This document shows, in pieces, positions 6,366 to 17,721 of a DNA stretch of 64,000 nucleotides (position 1 is its first letter; the number at the start of each line of letters is the position of its first letter). The DNA is taken from positions 192,001-256,000 of the forward strand of contig OZ243961.1 of assembly GCA_965214605.1 (NCBI GenBank), given 5' to 3'. Below the pieces are notes generated by a model. It worked only from the letters and a program-made list of their open reading frames with translations. It searched no databases and was not told the origin of the DNA. This stretch comes from an uncultured Candidatus Binatia bacterium. GTDB lineage: Bacteria; Desulfobacterota; Binatia; Bin18. Position numbers and translations under genes: made by a program.

Positions 6366-7061
6366 GTGATTTATGGGCAGAAAGAAGGGGTGCTGAAAAA
6401 TCCTCATGAGAGTAAAATATACTCTCGTTTCTCCCATTTCTATGATCGGATTTTTACTCGACTTTTCACTGAGCGGATTACGAATGCCGTTCAGGCTCTG
6501 AATATTCAGCCGGGCGCAAAGGTGCTTGAAGTCGGAGTCGGAACCGGTCTGTCGCTAGCGGCTTATCCTGCGCATTGCGAGGTGACGGGCATTGATTTGG
6601 CGCCTGATATGCTGGAGCGGGCGCGGGAAAAAACGTTCGACAATGGCTGGCGCCATATCCGGCTGCGGGAAATGGACGCCTTAAATCTCGATTTTCCGGA
6701 CAACTCGTTTGACTATGTGACCTCATTTCACGTTATCAGCGTCGTGCCTGACCCGGTCCGAATGATGAACGAAATCCATCGGGTGTGTAAGCCCGAGGGT
6801 AAGGTCGTCATTATTAACCATTTTCGGACGACAAAACCCGTGATTGGACCGCTTGTCGGTGCACTCGACCCGCTCACCCGGCGTCTGGGATGGAGTGCTT
6901 CACTGCGTTTGACGCAGGCGTTTGGCGAGGTGCCGATTCGGATTGAAAAGCGTTTTAAAACGTCTCCGTTATCGCTGTTCACCGTTGTTGTGGCTGAGAA
7001 CGAGAAGCAGGCCCGCGACAGACACCAACTGCAGGAAAACAGGACGGCCCATCCGTCGTAG
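6366..7061 (+). CDS. Class I SAM-dependent methyltransferase, PmtA-like phospholipid N-methyltransferase
   Basis: VLEVGVGTGLSL, GIDLAPDML, SVVPDP and N-terminal Y-x-R-x3-FYD resemble Rhodobacter-type PmtA. Confidence 0.75.
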   Translation: MIYGQKEGVLKNPHESKIYSRFSHFYDRIFTRLFTERITNAVQALNIQPGAKVLEVGVGTGLSLAAYPAHCEVTGIDLAPDMLERAREKTFDNGWRHIRLREMDALNLDFPDNSFDYVTSFHVISVVPDPVRMMNEIHRVCKPEGKVVIINHFRTTKPVIGPLVGALDPLTRRLGWSASLRLTQAFGEVPIRIEKRFKTSPLSLFTVVVAENEKQARDRHQLQENRTAHPS

Positions 7062-7073
7062 GCGGACGAACTC

Positions 7074-7637
7074 CTATTTCGCCCGTGATAGATAGTTTCC
7101 TGTCTCGGTATCGACCCTGACGGTTTCTCCAATTTCAATAAAACCAGGGACGCGGACAACCAGCCCGGTTTCGGTCGTGGCCGGTTTGAGTTCATTGTTA
7201 ACGGTTGCGCCCTTGAGGGAGGGGGGCGTGTCCTCAACCTTGAGGTCCACGGTCTTGGGCAGGGAAATACCAACCGGCTGGTCGTTATGCAGATCGACCT
7301 TGATCATCAGATTAGGCGTCAAATATTGGACCGCCTCGCCTAGACTGTCCTGTGACAGCTCTATTTGTTCATAGCTCTGGGCGTTCATGAAGTGATAGGC
7401 ACCGCCAGATTCATACAGATACTGCATCTCTTGTTGGTCAAGCACCGCCCGCTCAATTTTGTCGTCTGAGCGAAACTTGTTTTCGGTCTGCAGACCGGTG
7501 CGCAGGTTGCGCAGCTTGGTCTGGACAAAGCCGCGTTTATTGCCTGGAGTGATGTGTATCAGCTCCATCACACGATGGGGGGCGTCATGATACACAATGA
7601 GCATGCCCACTCGCAGCTGGGTTGCCTGTACAAACAT
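7074..7637 (-). CDS. efp: Elongation factor P
   Basis: HITPGNKRGFVQTKLRNL, KPATTETG, VPGFIEIGE, VDTETGNYLSR; ATG at 7637 with upstream GAGGAG. Confidence 0.93.
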   Translation of the reverse strand: MFVQATQLRVGMLIVYHDAPHRVMELIHITPGNKRGFVQTKLRNLRTGLQTENKFRSDDKIERAVLDQQEMQYLYESGGAYHFMNAQSYEQIELSQDSLGEAVQYLTPNLMIKVDLHNDQPVGISLPKTVDLKVEDTPPSLKGATVNNELKPATTETGLVVRVPGFIEIGETVRVDTETGNYLSRAK

Positions 7638-7663
7638 AGGGGACTCCTCCGTTGAAAAAGAAC

Positions 7664-8080
7664 TCAGTGCAACTGATCTTCGGGTGGCGCTGGTGGGGCA
7701 AAGATCGGCGACCCGTGGTGATGGACCATCAACCATTCACCAGCCCGCTTTTCGAAGACGTTCGTGCTTAAAACCTGGGAACGGGAACCGCCGTCTGGGC
7801 CGCTTGATTCGAGATTTTCGATCAACACGACCCAGGCCAGGTCACCTAGCACCTCAACCCGGACATCGCTCAGGGTAAATCGCATCGATTCCGTATTGGT
7901 AAAAATCCGCTCCCAGCTCGCCATCACCGGCCCCCAGCCGCACAAGAGCGGCCAGCCCGGATGGACACATTTGATATAGCTCTCTTGTAACCATCTCTTT
8001 TCCATCTCGCGCATCTCTAGTGTTTCAAAGGCTTGATAGAAGGCTCGATTGGCGGTCAGCACGGCGCTGTGTTCGTCCAT
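7664..8080 (-). CDS. NTF2/SnoaL-like domain protein
   Basis: ANRAFYQAF, CVHPGW, TNVFEK...W.MVHHHGSP. Confidence 0.85.
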   Translation of the reverse strand: MDEHSAVLTANRAFYQAFETLEMREMEKRWLQESYIKCVHPGWPLLCGWGPVMASWERIFTNTESMRFTLSDVRVEVLGDLAWVVLIENLESSGPDGGSRSQVLSTNVFEKRAGEWLMVHHHGSPIFAPPAPPEDQLH

Positions 8081-8535
8081 AGCTTTTCCCTCTTTACGGT
8101 ACAAGTGCCTTTTGGCCTAGCGCAAAAGAGTAGCCTGTTGCAAGCCCATCCTCTTGTGTTTGACGTCTTTTCCCTGGCATACTGCGCGGACCGCCCAATC
8201 GTTTGCCTCAGGAGGCGCCGGTAGTGGGATGACCTCGCTGTCAAAATGCCGTCAGGGAGTGCTCGCGCCTCTGTCCGATTTTGGTCCGTGGGCGTATAGC
8301 TTGAATACGGGAGTCGGCTGGGCTGCAGATTCACCATCTGGTATTGATAAAGGCAGGGTGGTGGACGGCTATAAAATATATGAGGAGCGGCGACGAGGCG
8401 GAGACTATGAGGCAAGACGGAGTCTGTCAGATGGTCGGCCCTGGGCTTTCCTCTCATTCTTTGCCGTCCACGGCCCTCTTCTCAGCAGATCTTTCCGAAC
8501 ACAAGTGAAGACTCTCCCTTAGACGAGGTGGTACG

Positions 8536-9747
8536 GTGAAACAAGCACTCCAGGGGGTAAAAGTTCTTGATTTTACTCAGGTCATGGCGGGACCGTTTTG
8601 CACCCTGCTGCTGGGCGACCTTGGCGCTGATGTGGTCAAGATTGAGCCGCCGAGCGGGGATTCAACGCGTGGCATGGGCGGACGCCAGGGTATGGAGAGT
8701 ACGGCATTTTGGGCCATCAATCGTAACAAACGTGGTATGGTCCTCAACCTCAAACACCCCCAAGCCCAAGAGTTGGCCCGGAAGCTGGCGGCTTGGGCCG
8801 ATATTTGGGTTGAGAACTATCGTCCGGGTGTCATGGACGCCTTTGGCCTGGGCTACACCGACCTGCGCCAGATCAACCCGGGCCTGATCTATGCCTCGGT
8901 GTCGGGCTTTGGTGCAACCGGACCGTACGCCAAAAAGGGCGGCTTTGACCTCGTCGCCCAAGGTATGTCGGGCATTATGTCGGTGACCGGAGAAGAGGGG
9001 CGTCCGCCCGTCAAATGTGGTGTGCCGATCACCGATTTAGCGGCGGCCCTGTTTGCCACCCAAGCGGTTCTGGCCGCCTATATCCATCGTCAAAATACGG
9101 GTCAGGGACAGTATATCGACACTTCGCTGCTTGAAGCCGGCATAGCCCTATCGATCTGGGAATCGACCCAGTACTTTTCGCGGAGAGAAATTCCCGAACC
9201 CATGGGCTCGGCCCACCGCATGTCCGCGCCGTATCAAGCCATCAAATGTGCAGACGGATACATCAATCTCGGCGCGGCCAACACCCGCACCTGGCAACGT
9301 TTTGCCCAAGCCATTGGTCGCCCCGAGCTGCTTGAGCGCCCGGAGTACGAAAATGAGCGTCAACGGGTCGTCAACCGCCATCTGTTAACCCGGGACATTG
9401 AGGACGTGACCAGCACAAAGACTCGCGCTCACTGGCTGGCTGTGCTCGAAGAAGTCGGCGTGCCGTGCGGGCCCATCCTCAATTATGCCGAAGTCTTTGA
9501 CGATCCCCATATCCAGGCCCGCGGCATGGTTCAGGAGATGAATCACCCGGTCGGGGGCAAGGTGCGGGTGCTCGGCCCGGCAGTGAAATTGTCCGAGACA
9601 CCAGCCCGTCTTACCCGCTGCTCGCCCCTCTTTGGCGAGCACACGGCTGAGCTCATGCGTGAGCTTGGCTATTCAGAGGCCGAGATTCAGGAGCTGAGCG
9701 AGGCGGGAGCAGTAGTGTTAGGTGCCGAGGAAGCCCAACCGAACTAA
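8536..9747 (+). CDS. CoA transferase, family III (CaiB/BaiF)
   Basis: VLDFTQVMAGPF, LGADVVKIEPP, NRNKR, ENYRPG, FDLVAQGMSG. Confidence 0.93.
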   Translation: MKQALQGVKVLDFTQVMAGPFCTLLLGDLGADVVKIEPPSGDSTRGMGGRQGMESTAFWAINRNKRGMVLNLKHPQAQELARKLAAWADIWVENYRPGVMDAFGLGYTDLRQINPGLIYASVSGFGATGPYAKKGGFDLVAQGMSGIMSVTGEEGRPPVKCGVPITDLAAALFATQAVLAAYIHRQNTGQGQYIDTSLLEAGIALSIWESTQYFSRREIPEPMGSAHRMSAPYQAIKCADGYINLGAANTRTWQRFAQAIGRPELLERPEYENERQRVVNRHLLTRDIEDVTSTKTRAHWLAVLEEVGVPCGPILNYAEVFDDPHIQARGMVQEMNHPVGGKVRVLGPAVKLSETPARLTRCSPLFGEHTAELMRELGYSEAEIQELSEAGAVVLGAEEAQPN

Positions 9748-10014
9748 GGCTCTTTTCGGAGGAAAACACAGAGAAGTCCGAGCATGGCACCGAGTTGGCC
9801 GATCTCCAGAATAAGGGGTTGTCGGCGAGATCTTCTTTGCTCGGTCAGTGCTGCGCCAACAGGTGGGCTCCATAAATAAACACGACTCCGGCCAGTGTTG
9901 CCAAAGGCAGGAGGCGGGAATGGCTAGCATCATGGGCGGCTGGCAGTAGACTACTCGCCCCGAGATACAGAAGCACGCCGGCAAACCATCCCAGCAGTAA
10001 GGCTAACTGCGGCG
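9714..10014 (+). repeat. 301-bp direct repeat, copy 1 (CoA-transferase 3' end, intergenic DNA and a duplicate ZIP 3' end)
   Basis: Matches 15256-15556 with 6 substitutions by manual comparison. Confidence 0.95.
9845..10014 (-). pseudogene. Duplicated C-terminal fragment of the ZIP transporter
   Basis: Encodes PQLALLLGWFAGVLLYLG...AHLLAQH, the same as the end of 15387-16127, but has no 5' part. Confidence 0.9.
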
Positions 10015-10017
10015 GAT

Positions 10018-10146
10018 TTGACACACGAGTTTGCCGCAACAAGAAATGGCATCCAGATCGCTTCAATCGAAGATTTCGAGAATGTTCAAGGGTCGGATTT
10101 GGGTGATAAACTTGAAGGTGATCAAAACGCGAACACACTCGACGCG
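10018..10146 (+). pseudogene. Fragment of an RTX-like (hemolysin-type Ca-binding) protein gene
   Basis: IEDFENVQGSDLGDKLEGDQNANTLD resembles the IENVxGS..DxLxGDxxANxL repeat unit. Confidence 0.5.
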
Positions 10147-10567
10147 CCTCGCATGTTGGGGTCGACGCGGGCTGGGCCACGCCGACCGCGCCGTTTCCCG
10201 CGATCGGGCGTGGGCATCTGCCTCCGGCATCGTGAGCGACGCTTCGGCGATATCCGGGTCTTACCGGGCGCCGCCCGGAGCAGCCGATCCTCCCGTTGCG
10301 GTCGGCGAGCGCGAAGTGCCGGAGGCAGGCGGCGGCGCCATTGCGGCCGCGAGGTCAGTGGGGACATCGCGGCCCGCCAAGCCCGCGCTTGCGTCGTCGC
10401 CGTTCGCCAACCCGGCTATGAAGAGCACGTTCGGGTCGTTCCGTATCGACGAATAGACTGCCAAAGCCGTTCACATAAGCATAGCGATTCGATACCGGGT
10501 CTCGCGTACATCGTTGCCGATCTCTCTTGTCGCTGGCTCGATCCTAATCGGCGGCTGTCAAGTTTGT

Positions 10568-11167
10568 TCACGAGTTCACCCGTCTCATTCGTCTACTCAG
10601 GTCGTATCTGCAGTTGGAGCGGTTGCTGAAGGCGGCCTCAATCAGAAATTCGAGCCTAGACTTGTTTATTCTTTCCCACGGCGCGACGGAAATCGTGACG
10701 TCCTTCCTCAGAAGATTGTCGATGATCCGATCAGGCATGTACGGATATCGTCGCTTATATTCCGACCGCTGATCGATACTCGTCCATGACGTAACGCCCG
10801 GATACAACAGCTTCTTTTCCTGAGCGCCGTAGGGTGCGTTGAAAGTGTCGGAAATACCTGGCAGATTTATGACCACTATCCCCGACCTCTTGTTCACCGA
10901 GCCGTTGTACATGCTCGAATGAATCTCCCAATCGACATGTTTTCGCCGCTTGGTCTCGCTTCCCACTAGTACAATAGTTACCGTCGAATCCCTGAGATAC
11001 CTGTCTCTTATCGCGCGACGGATCTGCTCATCGGCCCAGTCATCCGGGATGTCGTCGGTGTCAACAGAGCGGTCCACGAATATCGCATTCTCTGCGCCGA
11101 ACCTGCCCAGCGCATCCTTGTACCCCTGATCCCTGCCGTGATGATAGCTAATGAATACCTTGTGCAC
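10568..11167 (-). CDS. ThsB-like TIR protein (MTH538/DUF1863 type)
   Basis: HKVFISYHH, IRDRYLRDSTVTIVLVG and KHVDWEI (catalytic Glu position); GTG start at 11167 with a GGAG RBS, overlapping the SLOG gene end. Confidence 0.85.
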   Translation of the reverse strand: MHKVFISYHHGRDQGYKDALGRFGAENAIFVDRSVDTDDIPDDWADEQIRRAIRDRYLRDSTVTIVLVGSETKRRKHVDWEIHSSMYNGSVNKRSGIVVINLPGISDTFNAPYGAQEKKLLYPGVTSWTSIDQRSEYKRRYPYMPDRIIDNLLRKDVTISVAPWERINKSRLEFLIEAAFSNRSNCRYDLSRRMRRVNS

Positions 11168-11987
11168 CGCTATCTCCGTTGCCGACGGCCCGGCGAAGAC
11201 CTCGCGATACGAGCGTGAGCGCTTCCTGAATGTGCGGTGTCCGGGCGAGCACGGCGTTTTCCTCGCGGGACAGACCATTGCGGAGGTCGTCCGGGGAATA
11301 GGGACGAAAGCGCTCTCGACCGACCCAGTCACCGCGTGAACCTGCCCAGCGCTCGGCAAAGCCCATCGTCTCCGCAATGTCTCGGGAACACCCTCCGAAC
11401 CCGCCGAGCACGAAGACCGGCTGCCCGGCTTGCAGAGACAGGTATGTTTCCTCCGCGATACCGGGCATTGTCCCCTTGTAGTCGGCGACCCTTCCGCCGA
11501 GCACGATCCGCGCCCGAGTATCGCAGCGCATGACGGTTCGCATGGCCGTCAGCCCTTTCGTCCACTCCTCGTCATCAGGCTCATGCGCTGGAAGTTTCAG
11601 CCGCTGTTCCCAGGCCAGACGCTCGCCGTCGTCGGCGAGGAAGACGAGGCGGGCAGCAACCTCGTGTTCGGCGGAGAAGGTGGCGAGATCGTTGGGGGTC
11701 ATCCTTATATGCACCGGCCACGCCAGATAGTCGGTCACGACGATGGTCCCGTCGTGTCGCGGATGGTTCCGATAGCGTCCCACAAGCTCGAACAAGAGCT
11801 CCGTAAATCCGTGTTGTCGCAGGTCTCCGCCGTAGGCCAGACTCCTTCCCGAGGCCAGAACATGCAGCGCAATCTCGGCCATTGCATCGCGCAAATGCCC
11901 GTCGCTCAATCCAAACGCCTGCAAGTCGGGGCTCTCCGAAACCGAGATTCCGATCGCGGTCGCTGTTTTGGTCTGGGATAGGGTCAT
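11148..11987 (-). CDS. Stand-alone SLOG-superfamily protein (LD_cluster2-like)
   Basis: IGISVSESPDL, LAYGGDLR, YLAWP, RIVLGG, MPGIAEE, PVFVLGGFGG; ATGA overlap with the upstream TIR gene. Confidence 0.8.
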   Translation of the reverse strand: MTLSQTKTATAIGISVSESPDLQAFGLSDGHLRDAMAEIALHVLASGRSLAYGGDLRQHGFTELLFELVGRYRNHPRHDGTIVVTDYLAWPVHIRMTPNDLATFSAEHEVAARLVFLADDGERLAWEQRLKLPAHEPDDEEWTKGLTAMRTVMRCDTRARIVLGGRVADYKGTMPGIAEETYLSLQAGQPVFVLGGFGGCSRDIAETMGFAERWAGSRGDWVGRERFRPYSPDDLRNGLSREENAVLARTPHIQEALTLVSRGLRRAVGNGDSGAQGIH

Positions 11988-13159
11988 CGACGTTCCTCCA
12001 GCCATTCCGTCAGGGTCCGCACACGCACATCCGGGGCAATCTCCGATAACAGTCTCTGCTCGTCGGCGCCCATCAAGGGGTCAGGATATACGATCACCGG
12101 AGCCGAGTCCTCGCTGCCAGGGGGCAATGCCGCCAACGTGATCAACTCGGGCGGCCGGGCCGTGAACAGGACGCCCGGAGAATCTGCAAGATGTTGCCCG
12201 ACTCGGCAAAGCCACAACCAGGTGCGGAAGACCTCATCCAGGAGGCAGCCCGCGACCGTTCCGATCCGGTCCGTTCGGCCCGGTTCCATGCGGACGACCG
12301 GCACGTTACCGAGATACGGCATTCCGCGCGGATCGATGTCGCGCACGCAATCGACAACGAGCATCGGCACCAGACGACGCTTTGCCTCAATGACCTCACG
12401 GCGGCACCATTCCCGGGTGGAGTAGGAATCGGTGTGCACCGCCATGACGGCGCCGGCACCGATCTGGTGTCGCAGGACCTCTCCGAATGGCAACCCAGGT
12501 GGGATGTCATGGACGTCAAAGAAGCTTGCGAGCGGGCTGTGTCTGTGGATCCAGTCACGGATGTCGTGGGCCACGGACTCACCGTCCTTGTCATGCTTCG
12601 AGTGACTGATGAAGACCTGGATTTTCTCCAGATAGCGCTCGGGGGACGCCCCCCCATCCGGTCGCTGGAGCTCGTCGAGGCGATGCCGGAGCATGCGGCA
12701 GAATTCATGGGTCAGGTCCGAGGTCAGCCGTCGATGCTGGTCCGTCTCTCGCTCCTCCCACAGATCCCAACGCAACGCTTGCTGATCAAGCCCCAGCTCG
12801 AGCCCTCGACGGTCGATCGTCACCGGAAAGAAGCCCACGGGGACTCCCCTTGTCCGTGCGGCCCGGGCGATATCGCGGACATAGTCGGGCCATTCGGGAT
12901 CGTCGACCAGCATCGCCTCGGCCAGAACGACGACCGCCGTAAACTCCGCGTCTTCCCAGTCGATCGCCAAAGGCGTGGACGCGCCCGGCACGGGGGGATC
13001 ACTACGCTCAAGGACACTCACCCCGTGCTCTTCGCCCACGGTGTTATAGAGATCTCTGCCGTAGTCAGTGCGGAGCCGATCCGCAATCTTCCTGCCATCC
13101 GCATAGGAAGGATGCCACATGACATACACCGCGAAGAGCGGGCGGGTCGATAAATCCAT
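11984..13159 (-). CDS. TIR-domain protein: divergent N-terminal domain, TIR and C-terminal extension
   Basis: VFISHSKHD, FFDVHDIPPG, TDSYSTREWCRREV, PYLGNVP; C-terminal VYPDPLMG..E. Confidence 0.85.
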   Translation of the reverse strand: MDLSTRPLFAVYVMWHPSYADGRKIADRLRTDYGRDLYNTVGEEHGVSVLERSDPPVPGASTPLAIDWEDAEFTAVVVLAEAMLVDDPEWPDYVRDIARAARTRGVPVGFFPVTIDRRGLELGLDQQALRWDLWEERETDQHRRLTSDLTHEFCRMLRHRLDELQRPDGGASPERYLEKIQVFISHSKHDKDGESVAHDIRDWIHRHSPLASFFDVHDIPPGLPFGEVLRHQIGAGAVMAVHTDSYSTREWCRREVIEAKRRLVPMLVVDCVRDIDPRGMPYLGNVPVVRMEPGRTDRIGTVAGCLLDEVFRTWLWLCRVGQHLADSPGVLFTARPPELITLAALPPGSEDSAPVIVYPDPLMGADEQRLLSEIAPDVRVRTLTEWLEERR

Positions 13160-13348
13160 GGTGGTACCGGTCTAATCCCTTCGCAGTTCTTCAGGCAAAC
13201 GATCCGTTCAGCACGGGCCGCACCCATTTTCGAGGTTCATTCGCGCAACCGCGACCGTGGTGGTCTCGTCATCGCACCATAATGCAAACCGCACTGCAGC
13301 CGGAGCTCGCGGTCCACGCTCTTCGGCGCGCGGGCCCGTGCCTGCGCC

Positions 13349-14480
13349 TTACTGCCCAAGGTCCCTCTCGACCCGTTGACCATGCACCGGTCCAGAGGGC
13401 TCGCGGTCCTTCGCCGCCTGCGCATCCCGATCGACGCTCTCGGCGATTGGGCGGTGTCTCCACGATCCGCCTCGCTGTCGCGCGCCAACGCCCCTTCTCT
13501 CTGGACCCCGGCTTCCGCATCCTTGGCGGGCACGCCCTGTACCCCCTCGCCAGTCCCCTCCGGCTACTAAGATACGCTCTCCAGTCACGGCTTTCAACTG
13601 CTCGTGCAGCCTCGCCGCATCGTCAGTTAGCAGCTCGGCCCGGTTCCGCGCCCGGCTGATCTCGACGTAGAAGCTCTTCTGCGTGGTGAGATGAGGGTGG
13701 TTCGCCTCCATCGCGGCGATCACGTTGGCGACGGTGCGCCCCTGGAAGGCCTGCACCGTCGAGGCCCAGGCGTGATTGAGATGGCGCAACTGCGGGTCGC
13801 CTTCGCTCAGGCTGAGCATGCGCGCCCATCGTTGAGCCGGAACGATACACGGCCGTTGTTCACCCCGGTTACCTCTACGGTGTGGCTGTTGACGAGCCCG
13901 AGGCCGGTGTCGTTGCAGGTCCAGCGGACGCGGTCTCCGGCACGGAGCTCGATCCCCTCCACGCAGTAGACCTCACTGCCGCCCTGCCGTCCGCCGATCT
14001 CCCCCGGCTTCCAGCGCACCATGCCTCCTTCGCTGCCTTCCAGCAGGACCTCGCGGGTCTCGTGATCGACCCCGGCCACCTGCCGTCCTTGCCCCGGACC
14101 ATGTTGGCGAGGACCGCGTGGGTGTGGAGCTGGGGGGCGAGGTTGCGGGAGGTATCGTGACGGAAGGTGGCGGCCACCGTGCTCTGGTTGGCGGCGCGGA
14201 CCATGCGGCCGGTCTCCGGTGTAGCCGCATGCGGGTTTCGGCCGCGTTCGTCTCAATCCAGGCGAGCGTGCGCGCGACGGCCCGGTCGTGGGCACCGACC
14301 ACTCGGCTGTCGCCGCCGACCAATGCGATAGGGAGACGGATTTGGGCGCCGAGAAGGTGAGGTCGCGGCCGGGCCGGTGGATGCGGTTGCCGTCCTTGGC
14401 GAGGAGTACGAGCCGGCGCGCCGCTGCCGTCAGGCGCCCTGCAATGGTTGTCGGCCTTGAACACCTCCGGCCCAGCGGGC
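13349..14480 (-). pseudogene. MOBF (TrwC/TraI) relaxase-helicase pseudogene with frameshifts and a large internal deletion
   Basis: HRPGRDLTFSAPKSVS, AHDRAV and FRHDTSRNLAPQLHTHAV, joined directly to the helicase C-terminus (HAWASTVQAFQGRTV, FYVEISRAR). Confidence 0.9.
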
Positions 14481-14655
14481 TGGATCCCGAGCTTCATCGA
14501 ACGCCTTGGTGGATCTCGCCGGCGCATCGGCGAGCCTCGCGTGGTGGCCTTCAGGTCGGGATCCTCGCTGGCGCTCTGGCATCGGCCGCTGCCATCGACC
14601 GCCGGGACCGTCTCTCCCTGTCGGACTGCGGCGCCGTCGCCGCGCGGTTGACGGA

Positions 14656-15255
14656 CTACGGTGTCCGGCCCGGTCCGTTCCCGGCCGCCCGCACCGCCTC
14701 CGCCCTCGGGATGAACCGCTCGGCGGCCCTAGGGCGGCTCACATACTTGAGCCGGATGGGGGCGATCGGGAGCGGCCCAGGAAAGCGGAGCCAGCCGTGG
14801 AGGCTCTCCAGCTGCATGATCTCCGAGGTGAGGGCGCGCGCACAGCTCGCACTTGGGCGTGAACGAGACGCCGTCGCGGATGGTGTTGGCGCCGTAGGAG
14901 AACCCTTCGGCCATCTCCTCGACCTCGCTGCGCCCGAGGCTGTCGGCCGACCACTGCACGGTGTCGCAGTCGGGTGCGGCAAGCACCACGCGGGGCCGCG
15001 GCCCGAGGTGGTCTCGGCGCCGTTGCGCCCGTGGAGGTCGCGGAGCGCCGAGATCACCTGGATGCCGAGCACGAAGCAGTCACCGAACTGGCGCGACTCG
15101 GCGAGCCCCGGCTGGAGCGAGGGGACCTGGTGGAGGGTGGGGAGCTCGTCAAGCACGACCCAGATGCGGCGTGCGTCGTCGTGGTCGAGCGAGAGCATGG
15201 CGTTGACCGCGATCTTGAGCCAGGTAGAGATGAGGCCTCGCAGGCTCGGTACTGG
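14656..15255 (-). pseudogene. Type IV coupling protein (TraD/TrwB) C-terminal pseudogene
   Basis: WVVLDELPTL, ESRQFG.CFVLGIQ, SYGANTIRDGVS and SEIMQL spread over shifted frames; 5' part missing. Confidence 0.85.
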
Positions 15256-15556
15256 AGTGTTAGGTGCCGAGGAAGCCCAACAGAACTAAGGCTCTTTTCG
15301 GAGGAAAACACAGAGAAGTCCGAGCATGGCACCGAGTTGGCCTATCTCCAGAATAAGGGGTTGTCGGCTAGATCTTCTTTGCTCGGTCAGTGCTGCGCCA
15401 ACAGGTGGGCTCCATAAATAAACACGACTCCGGCCAGCGTTGCCAAAGGCAGGAGGCGGGAATGGCTAGCATCATGGGCGGCTGGCAGGAGACTACTCGC
15501 CCCGAGATACAGAAGCACGCCAGCAAACCATCCCAGCAGTAAGGCTAACTGCGGCG
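15256..15556 (+). repeat. 301-bp direct repeat, copy 2
   Basis: Matches 9714-10014; contains the functional ZIP 3' end. Confidence 0.95.
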
Positions 15557-16127
15557 TGGCGAGCGTCACATAGGCTTGGAGCCACACGCCGGAGAGAGGT
15601 GCGAGGGCGGTCAGCCCCAACATTGCGGTGGTCGCCCGGGGCGAGTGCCGGGTGCCCAACATCAGGCTCGCCACGCTGGCACCGTCGGCCAGTTTATGGA
15701 GAGTCACTCCTAATGCGATCGCCCAGCCGATATGGTCGTGAATGTGAAAGCCTTTCCCAATGGCAAATCCGTCAATTAGGCTGTGGACCATAATGCCGAG
15801 GGCTCCCAGCCCTCCGGCATGGGAGACATGGGCATGATGGGCTTCTCGCTCTTCGGGGGGGTCTCGGTCGTGGGTGGCATACTCAAGCACGTAAAAACAC
15901 AAAAATCCGCATACGCAGGCGAGCTGCAGGTGGTGGTACTCAAGGAGACTATCGGTCGAGTTCAAGAGCGCTAAGGCGTCGGGCAAGATCTCCACTAAGG
16001 CCCCGGTCATCAGGGCCCCGGCGCAGAAGGCAAACAGCACGCCTTGATAAGACCGAAAACGGAGGGCCAGCACTCCGCCGACTAGGGTGAGGACGCACGT
16101 AGCGCCTGCAATCCAGAAAGCAGTCAT
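15387..16127 (-). CDS. ZIP family metal transporter
   Basis: Multiple TM segments, His-rich loop, HSLIDG and HKLADG metal-site motifs. Confidence 0.9.
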   Translation of the reverse strand: MTAFWIAGATCVLTLVGGVLALRFRSYQGVLFAFCAGALMTGALVEILPDALALLNSTDSLLEYHHLQLACVCGFLCFYVLEYATHDRDPPEEREAHHAHVSHAGGLGALGIMVHSLIDGFAIGKGFHIHDHIGWAIALGVTLHKLADGASVASLMLGTRHSPRATTAMLGLTALAPLSGVWLQAYVTLATPQLALLLGWFAGVLLYLGASSLLPAAHDASHSRLLPLATLAGVVFIYGAHLLAQH

Positions 16128-16184
16128 ATGAGGAAGCAGACTATACTACTGCGACAGAGTTGTAAGTAGGGTGCTCTGCCCGTG

Positions 16185-16868
16185 TCACGCTGCTGGCTCC
16201 TGCGTACCAAACAGCCCTTCCTTGCCCTCTTTGACTAGCCAGGGCAGTATGCTCAAAGCGGCGGCCGGGTCTGCCCACCACCAACCTAGGAGCGCATTGG
16301 CTCCCAGACCGAGCAGGAGTGTGAATGACAAATACGAACAGGCGAGGGTTTCTTTTGCCTCGGCCCGCAGAGCCTGACTCCCGACGACAGCCGCCGCCCG
16401 AAGTTTTCCAAGGGACACGAGCGGCATAATTGTCAGTGAGAGGCCAGCCAGGACAATACCAATGAGGCTTTCGTGTGGGGCTTCCCGCTGCCACAATATC
16501 CAGCCGGCCTGGCCTAGCACGTACACGGCCAGAGCAAAAAACGAGACGCCTACAAATTGGTGTAACCGACGGTCTGCGCGTGCTATGCGTTCTATGGCAA
16601 CGCCTTGCAGCTCAAGCGCGAGACGCCACAAGAGGACCCCGGCGGCGAGGAGTTCAATCAGGCTGTTGAGGCCAAACTCAATCAGCGCAATACTCGCCGC
16701 TTCGGTACCGGCCCACAGCGCAATCACCGCTTCGACGATGTTATACAGCATCGTCGCAATAACGAGGCCAAGGCCAATCCGTAGCCAGCGCTCGGACGGC
16801 GTGCGGGGGGGAATCCCGACCGCAGCTCCGGGTCCCATTTTTCTCCACCTCCACCAACCATTATCCAC
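16185..16868 (-). CDS. CDF-like cation transporter (short, TM-only type)
   Basis: YNIVEAVIAL, FGLNSLIE, ALRAEAKETLACSYLS, WWADP; start uncertain. Confidence 0.75.
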   Translation of the reverse strand: MDNGWWRWRKMGPGAAVGIPPRTPSERWLRIGLGLVIATMLYNIVEAVIALWAGTEAASIALIEFGLNSLIELLAAGVLLWRLALELQGVAIERIARADRRLHQFVGVSFFALAVYVLGQAGWILWQREAPHESLIGIVLAGLSLTIMPLVSLGKLRAAAVVGSQALRAEAKETLACSYLSFTLLLGLGANALLGWWWADPAAALSILPWLVKEGKEGLFGTQEPAA

Positions 16869-17721
16869 TGGTCCTATACCGCCGAACTATCCACCCGCCC
16901 ACCACTAGCAGGCAGAGACACGCTGCAGCCATCTGTCCAGGAGGATAGTCGTAGTAGTTGGCTAGGACAAAGGCTGACACGTCTGTTACCAGCGAGACGG
17001 CCGGGGCGATCACAAACATTTGCCGACTTTCCCGACAGACATTTTTGGCCGCCAGGGCCGGGAGCACCAGACTGGCAAAGCTGAATACTACGCCGGAGAC
17101 ATGGATGGAAAACCCGACCGCCAGCCCCAGCCAGACCGCAATCAGGCCGTTCCACACCTCTACCCGCAAGCCGACCGCACGTGCCATTGTCGGGTCGATA
17201 ACCAGCAGCAGCGCTTGATAGGAATATCTCCACAGCATTATAGCCGTGCCCAGCAGCATGGCGGTAAAAATCCACACGTCGGTCCGTCTGGCGCCGATGA
17301 TGGTGCTGGATGACAGTCGGTTGATCTCTTCCATACCGATGGGGCTGTGGGCCATCAGCAGGATGGCTAGGCTGACCGACACCAGAAAGACCCAGCCGGT
17401 AAGGGCTTCGTGGGTTTCTTGGCCGCCACCCCGGTTGCCGCTGGCCGTCAGCAGGGCGGCCAATACGGCAAACACGCCGCCCATTGCCGAGTGGAAGAGG
17501 TCGGATCGCCACCAGCTGTGGATATCCTGACTGATTACACCGCCCAGCCATATACCGATAGCAATGCCCAGCATGGAAGCCTGAGAGACCGCCGCGCCAA
17601 TAAAAATCTGATCTCGGGCCACGACGAGGACGCCGATAAGGGACAGCAGCAGGCCGATCAGCCAGCCAGACACATAGGCGTAGTGAAACAACGGCCAGGA
17701 GGCGAGAAAGTTGTCGATCAC
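16861..17721 (-). CDS. Metal ABC transporter permease (ZnuB-like)
   Basis: Hydrophobic, GVLVVARDQIFIGAAVSQ, DPTMARAVG; operonic with the ATPase and binding protein. Confidence 0.85.
   Translation of the reverse strand: MIDNFLASWPLFHYAYVSGWLIGLLLSLIGVLVVARDQIFIGAAVSQASMLGIAIGIWLGGVISQDIHSWWRSDLFHSAMGGVFAVLAALLTASGNRGGGQETHEALTGWVFLVSVSLAILLMAHSPIGMEEINRLSSSTIIGARRTDVWIFTAMLLGTAIMLWRYSYQALLLVIDPTMARAVGLRVEVWNGLIAVWLGLAVGFSIHVSGVVFSFASLVLPALAAKNVCRESRQMFVIAPAVSLVTDVSAFVLANYYDYPPGQMAAACLCLLVVGGWIVRRYRTSG

Follow-up and report, generated by a model that had tools for sequence, protein, structure and literature searches.

A split TIR-SLOG2 gene pair coupled to a ThsB-type TIR gene in an uncultured Binatia bacterium: a candidate mobile, Thoeris-like cassette

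Introduction

The described Thoeris types join a signal-making TIR protein to SIR2, membrane, caspase or other effectors. We ask here what kind of system is encoded by a TIR operon in which no such effector is recognised. The operon lies in a 64,000-nucleotide (nt) stretch of DNA from an uncultured Candidatus Binatia bacterium (GenBank assembly GCA_965214605.1, contig OZ243961.1, positions 192,001 to 256,000 of the forward strand; hereafter ‘the window’). It consists of three genes on the minus strand, encoding, in order of transcription, a TIR protein of 391 amino acids (aa; ‘the large TIR’), a stand-alone SLOG protein of 279 aa and a ThsB-type TIR protein of 199 aa (‘the small TIR’). A first-pass annotation, made from the letters of the DNA, had proposed that this trio is a split form of TIR-SLOG fusions, probably related to type III Thoeris. 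The analysis described below upholds the first of these claims and supports the second in part. It places the trio, as a minimal and split form, in a large TIR-SLOG2 family with accessory ThsB-type TIRs that is neither rare nor confined to this DNA; the trio is not a new category.

Results

Operon structure and protein domains

All three genes are uninterrupted open reading frames (ORFs) on the minus strand: the large TIR gene at 11984–13159, the SLOG gene at 11148–11987 (279 aa from the ATG at 11987, or 285 aa from an alternative in-frame ATG at 12005) and the small TIR gene at 10568–11167, which has a GTG start. The coupling of the genes described in the first-pass annotation can be read directly in the sequence. 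At the junction of the large TIR and SLOG genes, CGTCGATGACC, the bases ATGA (11984–11987) are common to the stop codon of the one and the start codon of the other, and this junction is kept in all ten of the fully intact related loci described below. At the second junction the SLOG frame ends in a TAG at 11148–11150 and the small TIR gene begins with the GTG at 11167, producing a 20-nt overlap (11148–11167); the same arrangement recurs in most intact relatives. The start codon of the small TIR gene (11165–11167) is ATG at the same position in 12 intact relatives.

The large TIR matches Pfam family PF13676 (TIR_2) over residues 182–274 (E 5.9e-12), and its homologues form more than 120 full-length clusters. 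An N-terminal accessory domain (aa 1–172) and a C-terminal accessory domain (aa 309–391) flank a TIR core at about aa 179–308 (window positions 12236–12625). The presumed catalytic glutamate, Glu255, lies in a REWCRRE motif (codon 12395–12397, minus strand, within YSTREWCRREVIEAK) and is invariant in 46 of 46 aligned homologues; we take this motif to correspond to the SxWCxxE motif of TIR NADases. The AlphaFold2 (AF2) model of the protein has a mean predicted local distance difference test (pLDDT) value of 85.9 and a predicted template modelling (pTM) score of 0.89. The best structural match of its core (residues 179–308) is the SARM1 TIR domain (9hq0_A; Z 15.3, root-mean-square deviation 2.4 Å, 122 residues aligned), with further matches to B. 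cereus ThsB (Z 11.3) and to a TIR-SAVED protein (7qqk, Z 10.1); the best PADLOC match, a weak one, is likewise a SAVED_TIR effector model. A phmmer search of the PDB with the large TIR returned no match. Alignment of the N-terminal domain to ThsB by hhalign gave a probability of 0.2%, and a profile of this domain found no match among PDB sequences. An Atlas search with the accessory domains returned unnamed clusters and TIR_2 clusters, the latter perhaps fragments of the same family, and the Foldseek list for the whole model consisted mostly of two-domain Rossmann proteins with low template modelling scores.

The SLOG protein belongs to PF18163 (SLOG cluster2; hereafter SLOG2), which it matches over residues 10–221 with 240.2 bits against a gathering cut-off of 25.3 (E 3.7e-71). 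Its motifs YGGDLR, MPGIAEE and GGFGG are nearly invariant in the family and are all kept in the window copy. Matches to PDB sequences by phmmer were at chance level. The AF2 model (pLDDT 91.8) is closest in structure to the SLOG domain of B. cereus ThsA in complex with 3' cyclic ADP-ribose (3'cADPR; 7uxs_A, Z 15.8, root-mean-square deviation 3.4 Å, 183 of 196 residues aligned), followed by the LOG-like protein 1rcu (Z 14.0), another ThsA, DprA, LOG enzymes (5ajt, Z 12.7; all at most 12.7) and the ADP-ribose (ADPR)-binding region of TRPM. The predicted fold makes the stand-alone SLOG a candidate signal receptor, as we presume it to be; a fold in common with the SLOG domain of ThsA would not by itself prove a common ligand.

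The small TIR matches PF08937 (ThsB_TIR) with an E value of 3.4e-21 and, weakly, the ThsB and PDC-M50B models of PADLOC (E 2e-10). Its Glu81, in the VDWEI motif (HVDWEIHSS; codon 10925–10927, minus strand), is invariant in 19 of 19 aligned homologues and is equated with the catalytic position by a weak phmmer alignment to B. cereus ThsB (6LHY, E 0.045). The gene therefore qualifies as the ThsB-type TIR gene with a conserved glutamate that marks a Thoeris locus, and its product is presumed to be a candidate sensor and signal maker. Both glutamates singled out in the first-pass annotation are thus located and conserved. Its statement on effectors also holds: Pfam assigns one family to each protein, neither Pfam nor PADLOC finds a SIR2, Macro, caspase or membrane protein in the trio, and the highest 19-residue Kyte-Doolittle hydropathy is at most 1.04 in each of the three proteins, so that no hydrophobic stretch is present.

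The large TIR and the SLOG protein as halves of a single-chain protein

A search with the SLOG protein among proteins of 490–2000 aa gave 199 matches, 120 of which were listed and are counted here. PF18163 and PF13676 occur together in 113 of these 120 longer relatives, most of them 630–730 aa in length; the other seven carry patatin (two), elongation factor G (EF-G) domains III/IV/C (two), TPR (two) or PF18163 alone (one). In one fused protein of 657 aa (P0121), residues 1–384 align to the large TIR (42% identity, E 4e-110) and residues 396–653 to the SLOG protein (51% identity, E 9e-89). A cyanobacterial protein of 689 aa from Gloeothece (P0140) is colinear as well, with 29% identity to the large TIR and 36% to the SLOG protein. 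It follows from the colinearity with both proteins that the ATGA overlap sits at the linker position of the fused proteins. The window pair thus has the colinear homology, large TIR first and SLOG2 second, that defines a split TIR-SLOG2 fusion, and, judged from these alignments, its two proteins represent the halves of a widespread single-chain TIR-SLOG2 protein.

An exhaustive search recovered 2024 representative SLOG2 clusters (50% identity, E ≤ 1e-3). Among the best 150 of these, 26 are C-terminal SLOG2 domains of 654–733-aa proteins, three are N-terminal SLOG2 domains of 872–1134-aa proteins and 121 are proteins of at most 421 aa, fragments included.

Structure prediction of the complex, a check proposed with the first-pass annotation, supported docking of the large TIR and the SLOG protein: the interface score ipSAE was 0.86 for this pair versus 0.04 for the best of three controls, in a test that the halves of split genes tend to pass and for which alignments of our own making served as input. 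A score of 0.86 is reached by 116 of 157 solved complexes and by two of 215 mismatched pairs. At least 92% of the contacts agreed between runs, and the partner pLDDT was at least 86. The modelled interface on the large TIR is formed by residues 5–71 and 360–388, which belong to the accessory domains and not to the TIR core. The model supports, and does not show, binding of the SLOG protein to the large TIR.

Among the longer relatives, SLOG2 stands N-terminal to EF-G domains III/IV/C or to TPR in P0125 and P0126 (582–588 aa) and in P0131 and P0191 (872–897 aa). P0127 (1176 aa), labelled as Tanacetum cinerariifolium, combines SLOG cluster2, TIR_2 and ThsB_TIR with three other Pfam families; the plant assembly may contain DNA of bacterial origin at this point, or separate gene models may have been merged.

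Small TIR genes beside the core in annotated genomes

A tblastn search of plasmids with the fused protein matched 11 records, in one piece in three of them and in two or more pieces in eight. We inspected nine annotated loci, consisting of eight of these 11 plasmid records and one E. coli chromosome that was found with Klebsiella DNA. Part of that Klebsiella query (69%, at about 71% identity) matches 39 of 5426 complete E. coli genomes, and in each of the ten E. coli records listed a large TIR, a SLOG and a small TIR gene lie under the match.

At least one small TIR gene is present within about 3 kb of the TIR-SLOG2 core in all nine loci, and Pfam confirmed its domain (ThsB_TIR or TIR_2) in six of them (Klebsiella, Priestia, Gloeothece, P. 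veronii, Roseicitreum and E. coli). The core is split in Klebsiella pKpnB199 (where a divergent ThsB_TIR gene precedes the pair), P. veronii (ThsB_TIR, the split pair and two more TIRs), Roseicitreum (ThsB_TIR and the split pair), E. coli (a 242-aa protein, two ThsB_TIR proteins and the split pair), Methylorubrum (the split pair and two TIRs) and Mesorhizobium (a TIR and the split pair). It is fused in Priestia (with ThsB_TIR, a 240-aa partner and another TIR), Gloeothece (with TIR_2) and Aureispira (among three TIRs). The plasmid hosts of split or fused forms thus include Klebsiella, Pseudomonas, rhizobia, Priestia and Aureispira. With both forms, accompanied by one to three small TIRs, occurring in E. 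coli, on plasmids and in a cyanobacterium, the arrangement is neither rare nor peculiar to the window.

Several of these loci contain additional genes. The approximately 240-aa proteins of E. coli (L044:4121–4849) and Priestia (L040:3853–4575) share 36% identity (E 3e-47), have no Pfam or NCBIfam match and adjoin a ThsB_TIR gene in both operons; the window cassette has no counterpart. In E. coli (L044:10397–14005), Mesorhizobium (L049:115–3030) and Roseicitreum (L043:123–2483), the core is accompanied by an operon that joins a small TIR gene to genes of nucleotide metabolism. The E. coli operon resembles DS-4 (thymidylate synthase, kinase), and the other two contain a nucleoside triphosphate pyrophosphohydrolase or a uracil-DNA glycosylase. 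DS-4 (NTTI; DeWeirdt, Mahoney and Laub 2026, PMC13092281) comprises five genes and reportedly confers protection on E. coli. A DS-4 homologue lies about 2.4 kb from the E. coli TIR-SLOG2 operon, and the TIR of that locus (L044:11053–11544) is nearly identical to the DS-4 TIR as printed there. DS-4 resembles the present system in being a TIR-containing operon of the same E. coli island, with a TIR closely homologous to the one at L044:11053–11544, but its components (thymidylate synthase, kinase, base-hypermodification protein, TIR and a hypothetical protein) are absent from the window trio. A functional link between the nucleotide-metabolism operons and the TIR-SLOG2 core is possible.

An expanded version of the system is found in a metagenome locus (L045, positions 6667–17707), which contains a SLOG2-patatin fusion of 1125 aa. 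The gene immediately upstream, whose stop codon overlaps the start codon of the fusion, encodes a protein of 445 aa that shows 48% identity to the large TIR along its full length. Downstream of the fusion come a WD40 protein of 1027 aa and two more TIR_2 ORFs. Since a large TIR is kept in this locus, where SLOG2 has patatin as a presumptive effector of its own, it is not simply one of several swappable effectors.

Conservation and mobility of the trio

We scanned one genome per species for loci encoding a relative of the SLOG protein at 48–78% identity. This gave 36 related loci from at least seven phyla, all in metagenome-assembled genomes (MAGs) by record title. The lineages checked include Binatota, Gemmatimonadota and Rhodothermota, and Pseudomonadota are also among the hosts. 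Further hosts belong to Thermoanaerobaculia and Vicinamibacterales (which we take to be Acidobacteriota), Acidimicrobiia (presumably Actinomycetota) and Dehalococcoidia (presumably Chloroflexota). The gene order large TIR, SLOG, small TIR recurs among these loci, and the DNA similarity of the 36 loci to the window is confined to positions 10564–13178 at most, that is, to the three genes and a few bases.

To look for a conserved fourth gene, we clustered the ORFs of the window and of the 36 loci, taking all that reach 80 aa or more. Every cluster present in more than five loci falls inside the span of the trio, in sense or antisense, and no flanking gene is common to more than five of the 37 loci. 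There is therefore no conserved fourth gene, and the extra effector whose existence would have told against the first-pass annotation does not appear in this survey.

A gene was counted as intact when 90% or more of the query lay within a single ORF. By this measure all three genes are intact in ten of the 36 loci; in one of these (L009) the small TIR gene does not have its usual start codon. The median dN/dS ratios (nonsynonymous to synonymous substitution rates) among intact copies are 0.18, 0.15 and 0.11 for the three genes, approximate values given that dS is near 1; they point to purifying selection on the intact copies and say nothing about the window copy itself. Domains of defence or mobile-element type (GmrSD_N, AAA_15/AAA_21, Schlafen AlbA_2, DUF499/DUF7680/DUF1156, further TIRs and insertion sequence transposases) flank seven of the ten intact loci; the flanks of the remaining three hold housekeeping genes or nothing recognisable. 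Taken together, the gene order, the limits of DNA similarity and the range of hosts indicate, at the level of sequence comparison, that the trio is a self-contained unit that moves horizontally between at least seven phyla.

At L010, L011, L013 and L014, four MAG loci whose lineages differ, DUF7680, DUF499, GmrSD_N or AAA_15 genes lie on one side of the trio and a methylase-type DUF1156 gene on the other, an arrangement that suggests repeated insertion of the trio into one type of larger defence system. The cassette ends have no sequence motif conserved across all 11 copies. A leader of about 45–50 nt before the large TIR gene is common to L001, L003, L011 and L022, and a trailer of about 45–50 nt after the small TIR gene to L003, L011 and L013; both are absent from the window.

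Comparison with known defence systems

The trio is not assigned to any described system by the two comparisons made, PADLOC and NCBIfam, in keeping with the first-pass annotation. PADLOC returned no match for the SLOG protein and only weak matches of TIR models for the two TIRs, and nothing in NCBIfam scored above any cut-off for the trio.

Type I Thoeris (ThsB with the SIR2-SLOG protein ThsA) resembles the trio in three respects: the ThsB_TIR-family gene with a conserved glutamate, the SLOG domain, whose predicted fold in the window protein is nearest to the 3'cADPR-bound SLOG of ThsA, and, by analogy, what may be a common logic of joining a signal-binding domain to a domain that consumes NAD+ (nicotinamide adenine dinucleotide). 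Unlike type I, however, the trio has no SIR2 domain by Pfam and instead has a TIR_2 protein with two accessory domains; its SLOG belongs to another family (PF18163) and has no ThsA match in PADLOC, so that no ThsA is identified, and the sensor and enzyme halves are separate genes. Types II and IV differ in their Macro-TM (transmembrane) or caspase-like effectors, neither of which was detected in the trio by Pfam or PADLOC and for which it offers no hydrophobic stretch.

Type III Thoeris reportedly consists of a SLOG protein, ThcA, and the TIR proteins ThcB1–4, and van den Berg and colleagues are said to have described it in 2024. The relation proposed in the first-pass annotation stands as far as architecture goes, in that the trio is an operon of two TIR genes and one SLOG gene coupled by overlaps and so combines several TIRs with a SLOG; it does not extend to the protein families, whose models score far below their cut-offs. 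This comparison draws on the family models and on published descriptions of the type. The best NCBIfam match of the large TIR is ThcB4 (NF058526), at 36.1 bits against a cut-off of 220 and over the TIR core only, which leaves it outside that family. The window SLOG has no NCBIfam match at E ≤ 0.1 and hence is no ThcA equivalog (NF058525, cut-off 110 bits), and for the SLOG2 relatives in E. coli, Klebsiella and Priestia the only NCBIfam match is ThcA, with 19–23 bits versus 110. The ThcA model spans 184 positions, whereas SLOG2 has about 280 residues. A search with this model for a type III locus found no match in 401 genomes of the phylum of the window or in 14 control genomes. A preprint describes type III as a combination of several TIR proteins and a SLOG effector, the signalling of which is uncharacterised.

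Colinear homology over the whole length links the core to single-chain TIR-SLOG2 proteins, for instance those under the name ‘TIR domain-containing protein’ in Gloeothece citriformis PCC 7424 (plasmid pP742404), Priestia megaterium and Aureispira, which likewise have adjoining small TIR genes; they differ in being one polypeptide, as opposed to two genes with an ATGA overlap in the window. TIR-SAVED (Cap12) of CBASS (cyclic oligonucleotide-based antiphage signalling system) and SARM1 are TIR NADases activated by ligand-driven assembly, and the large TIR core resembles them in structure (Z 10.1 and 15.3, respectively), but their ligand module is SAVED or ARM rather than SLOG, and what lies upstream of them is a CD-NTase or a metabolite ratio rather than a TIR.

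The phrase ‘TIR-SLOG-based antiviral systems’ occurs in one computational survey (PMC9503650). Among the papers searched we found none that names PF18163 or SLOG cluster2, no occurrence of ‘SLOG’ in PMC13069673, and no experimental test of the fused or split form; the type III paper and the type list of Yirmiya et al. may describe the family. That list (bioRxiv 10.64898/2025.12.03.692087) comprises 29 putative Thoeris types. Six accession numbers for the E. coli homologue are absent from the searchable text of three supplements of Wang et al. 2024 (32 clusters tested, 20 of which gave no protection; one supplement lists GenBank ids only) and of the DefensePredictor supplements.

Genomic setting in the window

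The cassette lies in a 5.5-kb insert between convergent genes for a CoA-transferase (8536–9747) and a ZIP transporter (15387–16127). The insert is bounded by direct repeats of 300 nt at 9714–10013 and 15256–15555, which are 98% identical; within the left copy lie the 3' ends of both convergent genes. Its remaining gene content is wrecked, as first described: positions 13349–15198 contain only fragments of conjugation genes on the minus strand (pieces of a TrwC relaxase, a piece of a UvrD_C_2 helicase end and pieces of a TrwB/TraD coupling protein) in several frames. No integrase is left in the insert and no recognisable gene is present at 10014–10567; the window contains no tRNA gene, and a consensus scan found no terminator-like site. 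We read the insert as an eroded integrative conjugative element whose other parts have decayed since it brought the cassette. The genome holds a single copy of the trio, and SLOG cluster2 occurs in one of 401 sampled genomes of the phylum, namely that of the window; both observations fit horizontal acquisition.

Contigs from four sequencing runs (X1–X3 and X5) cover the trio, and none of the contigs listed spans the whole insert; no RNA run is among the sequencing runs listed. Each run gave 78–182 contigs on positions 9000–16500, of which 28–68 per run are only 90–95% alike, and in three runs out of four (X2, X3 and X5) the summed contig depth is higher over the trio (10506–13266) than on its flanks. 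To the extent that short contigs permit the inference, each sample may thus contain several variants of the cassette.

Discussion

We see about an even chance that the trio is one self-contained, mobile, Thoeris-like candidate anti-phage cassette in which the ThsB-type TIR would signal, the SLOG2 protein would read the signal and the large TIR would be the NADase. On infection, the small TIR would convert NAD+ into an ADPR-derived signal, and the SLOG2 protein would bind it. Binding would then drive assembly of the large TIR, docked with SLOG2 through its N- and C-terminal accessory domains, and the TIR domain of the assembled protein would deplete NAD+ and so abort the infection. This scheme is modelled on type I Thoeris and on ligand-activated TIR effectors (TIR-SAVED), as is the proposed division of labour between a ThsB-type sensor and signal maker and a large TIR effector, an assignment that the SLOG2-patatin locus L045 complicates.

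A number of observations weigh against this scheme. From its persistence beside SLOG2-patatin, the large TIR may be an obligate partner of SLOG2, or a signal maker, and not the effector. Its N-terminal domain has no detectable relation to known proteins, and SLOG2 is also found fused to EF-G-like and TPR regions. In distant relatives (L029, L031 and Klebsiella) the place and orientation of the small TIR gene are variable. Among the 36 related loci, 26 have at least one broken gene; the SLOG gene is intact in 27, the large TIR gene in 16 and the small TIR gene, which is lost most often, in 13, counts that are biased toward SLOG because the loci were found with it. In the window, the consensus scan found no promoter-like site directly upstream of the operon. 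The signal, the NADase activity and the protection against phage are candidate functions, proposed by analogy.

The likeliest of the alternatives, which we still consider unlikely, is a wiring like that of type III. Each TIR would then serve as sensor and signal maker, alongside the other or joined to it in a hetero-oligomer. SLOG2 would be the output, either as a LOG-type enzyme that destroys a nucleotide or as a platform on which patatin, EF-G-like or TPR outputs are mounted in other proteins. The retention of the large TIR in L045 is as this wiring would have it, ThcB4 is the best NCBIfam match of the large TIR, and the structural matches of the SLOG protein include LOG and LOG-like enzymes (1rcu, Z 14.0; 5ajt, Z 12.7). 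Yet the best fold match of that protein is the ligand-sensing SLOG of ThsA, a stand-alone SLOG of 279 aa has no toxic domain that Pfam recognises, and the scores of the ThcA and ThcB4 models are far under their cut-offs. Fusion of a signal maker to its own receiver, which this wiring would imply for 113 of the 120 listed relatives, would moreover be an odd design for a diffusible signal.

The frequent loss of the small TIR gene and its shifting place and orientation are what one would expect if the locus held two independent systems. The large TIR-SLOG2 pair would then be complete alone, sensing infection or a phage- or host-made nucleotide directly, and the small TIR would be a separate single-gene defence; single-protein short-TIR systems are reported to protect E. 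coli (Wang et al. 2024, PMC11350192, section 6), and several relatives carry two or three different small TIRs. Against this, the 20-nt overlap couples the small TIR gene to the SLOG gene in the window and in most intact relatives, a small TIR is found in all nine annotated loci, and the cross-phylum DNA similarity spans all three genes as one block. We regard this explanation as quite improbable. The trio is more than a chance neighbourhood.

A last possibility, which we consider very unlikely, is that mere chance has kept the cassette intact in a decaying element, where it would be a silent remnant, unexpressed or no longer functional. In favour of this, the rest of the insert is fragmentary, most related loci have a broken gene, the small TIR start has changed from ATG to GTG and no promoter-like site lies just upstream, but GTG is a valid start codon, 2.6 kb with three uninterrupted frames keep both glutamates and all of the nearly invariant SLOG motifs, and there is purifying selection among intact copies, even if it is silent on this one.

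Returning to the reading in which the small TIR would signal to the large TIR through SLOG2, we tentatively suggest, at somewhat less than even likelihood, that the family as a whole represents a TIR-to-TIR relay. The signal of the small TIR would activate a second, differently built TIR through a SLOG adaptor, fused or free, that sits on two family-specific accessory domains. The large TIR-SLOG2 unit would be the universal receiver, to which extra outputs (patatin, EF-G-like, TPR) are sometimes added, and the 2.6-kb cassette would carry the relay between at least seven phyla. Our search found no tested case in which the receiver enzyme is itself a TIR. If the relay is real, the product of such a receiver might feed back on the SLOG.

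Since the family reaches E. coli (39 of 5426 complete genomes) and plasmids of Klebsiella, Pseudomonas and Priestia, laboratory hosts are at hand for direct tests. A protein that is naturally split at its linker offers a ready way to separate the sensor and enzyme halves and to ask how the SLOG controls the TIR. The cassette itself, with DNA boundaries a few bases from its gene ends, is a clean example of a three-gene candidate defence unit exchanged across phyla.

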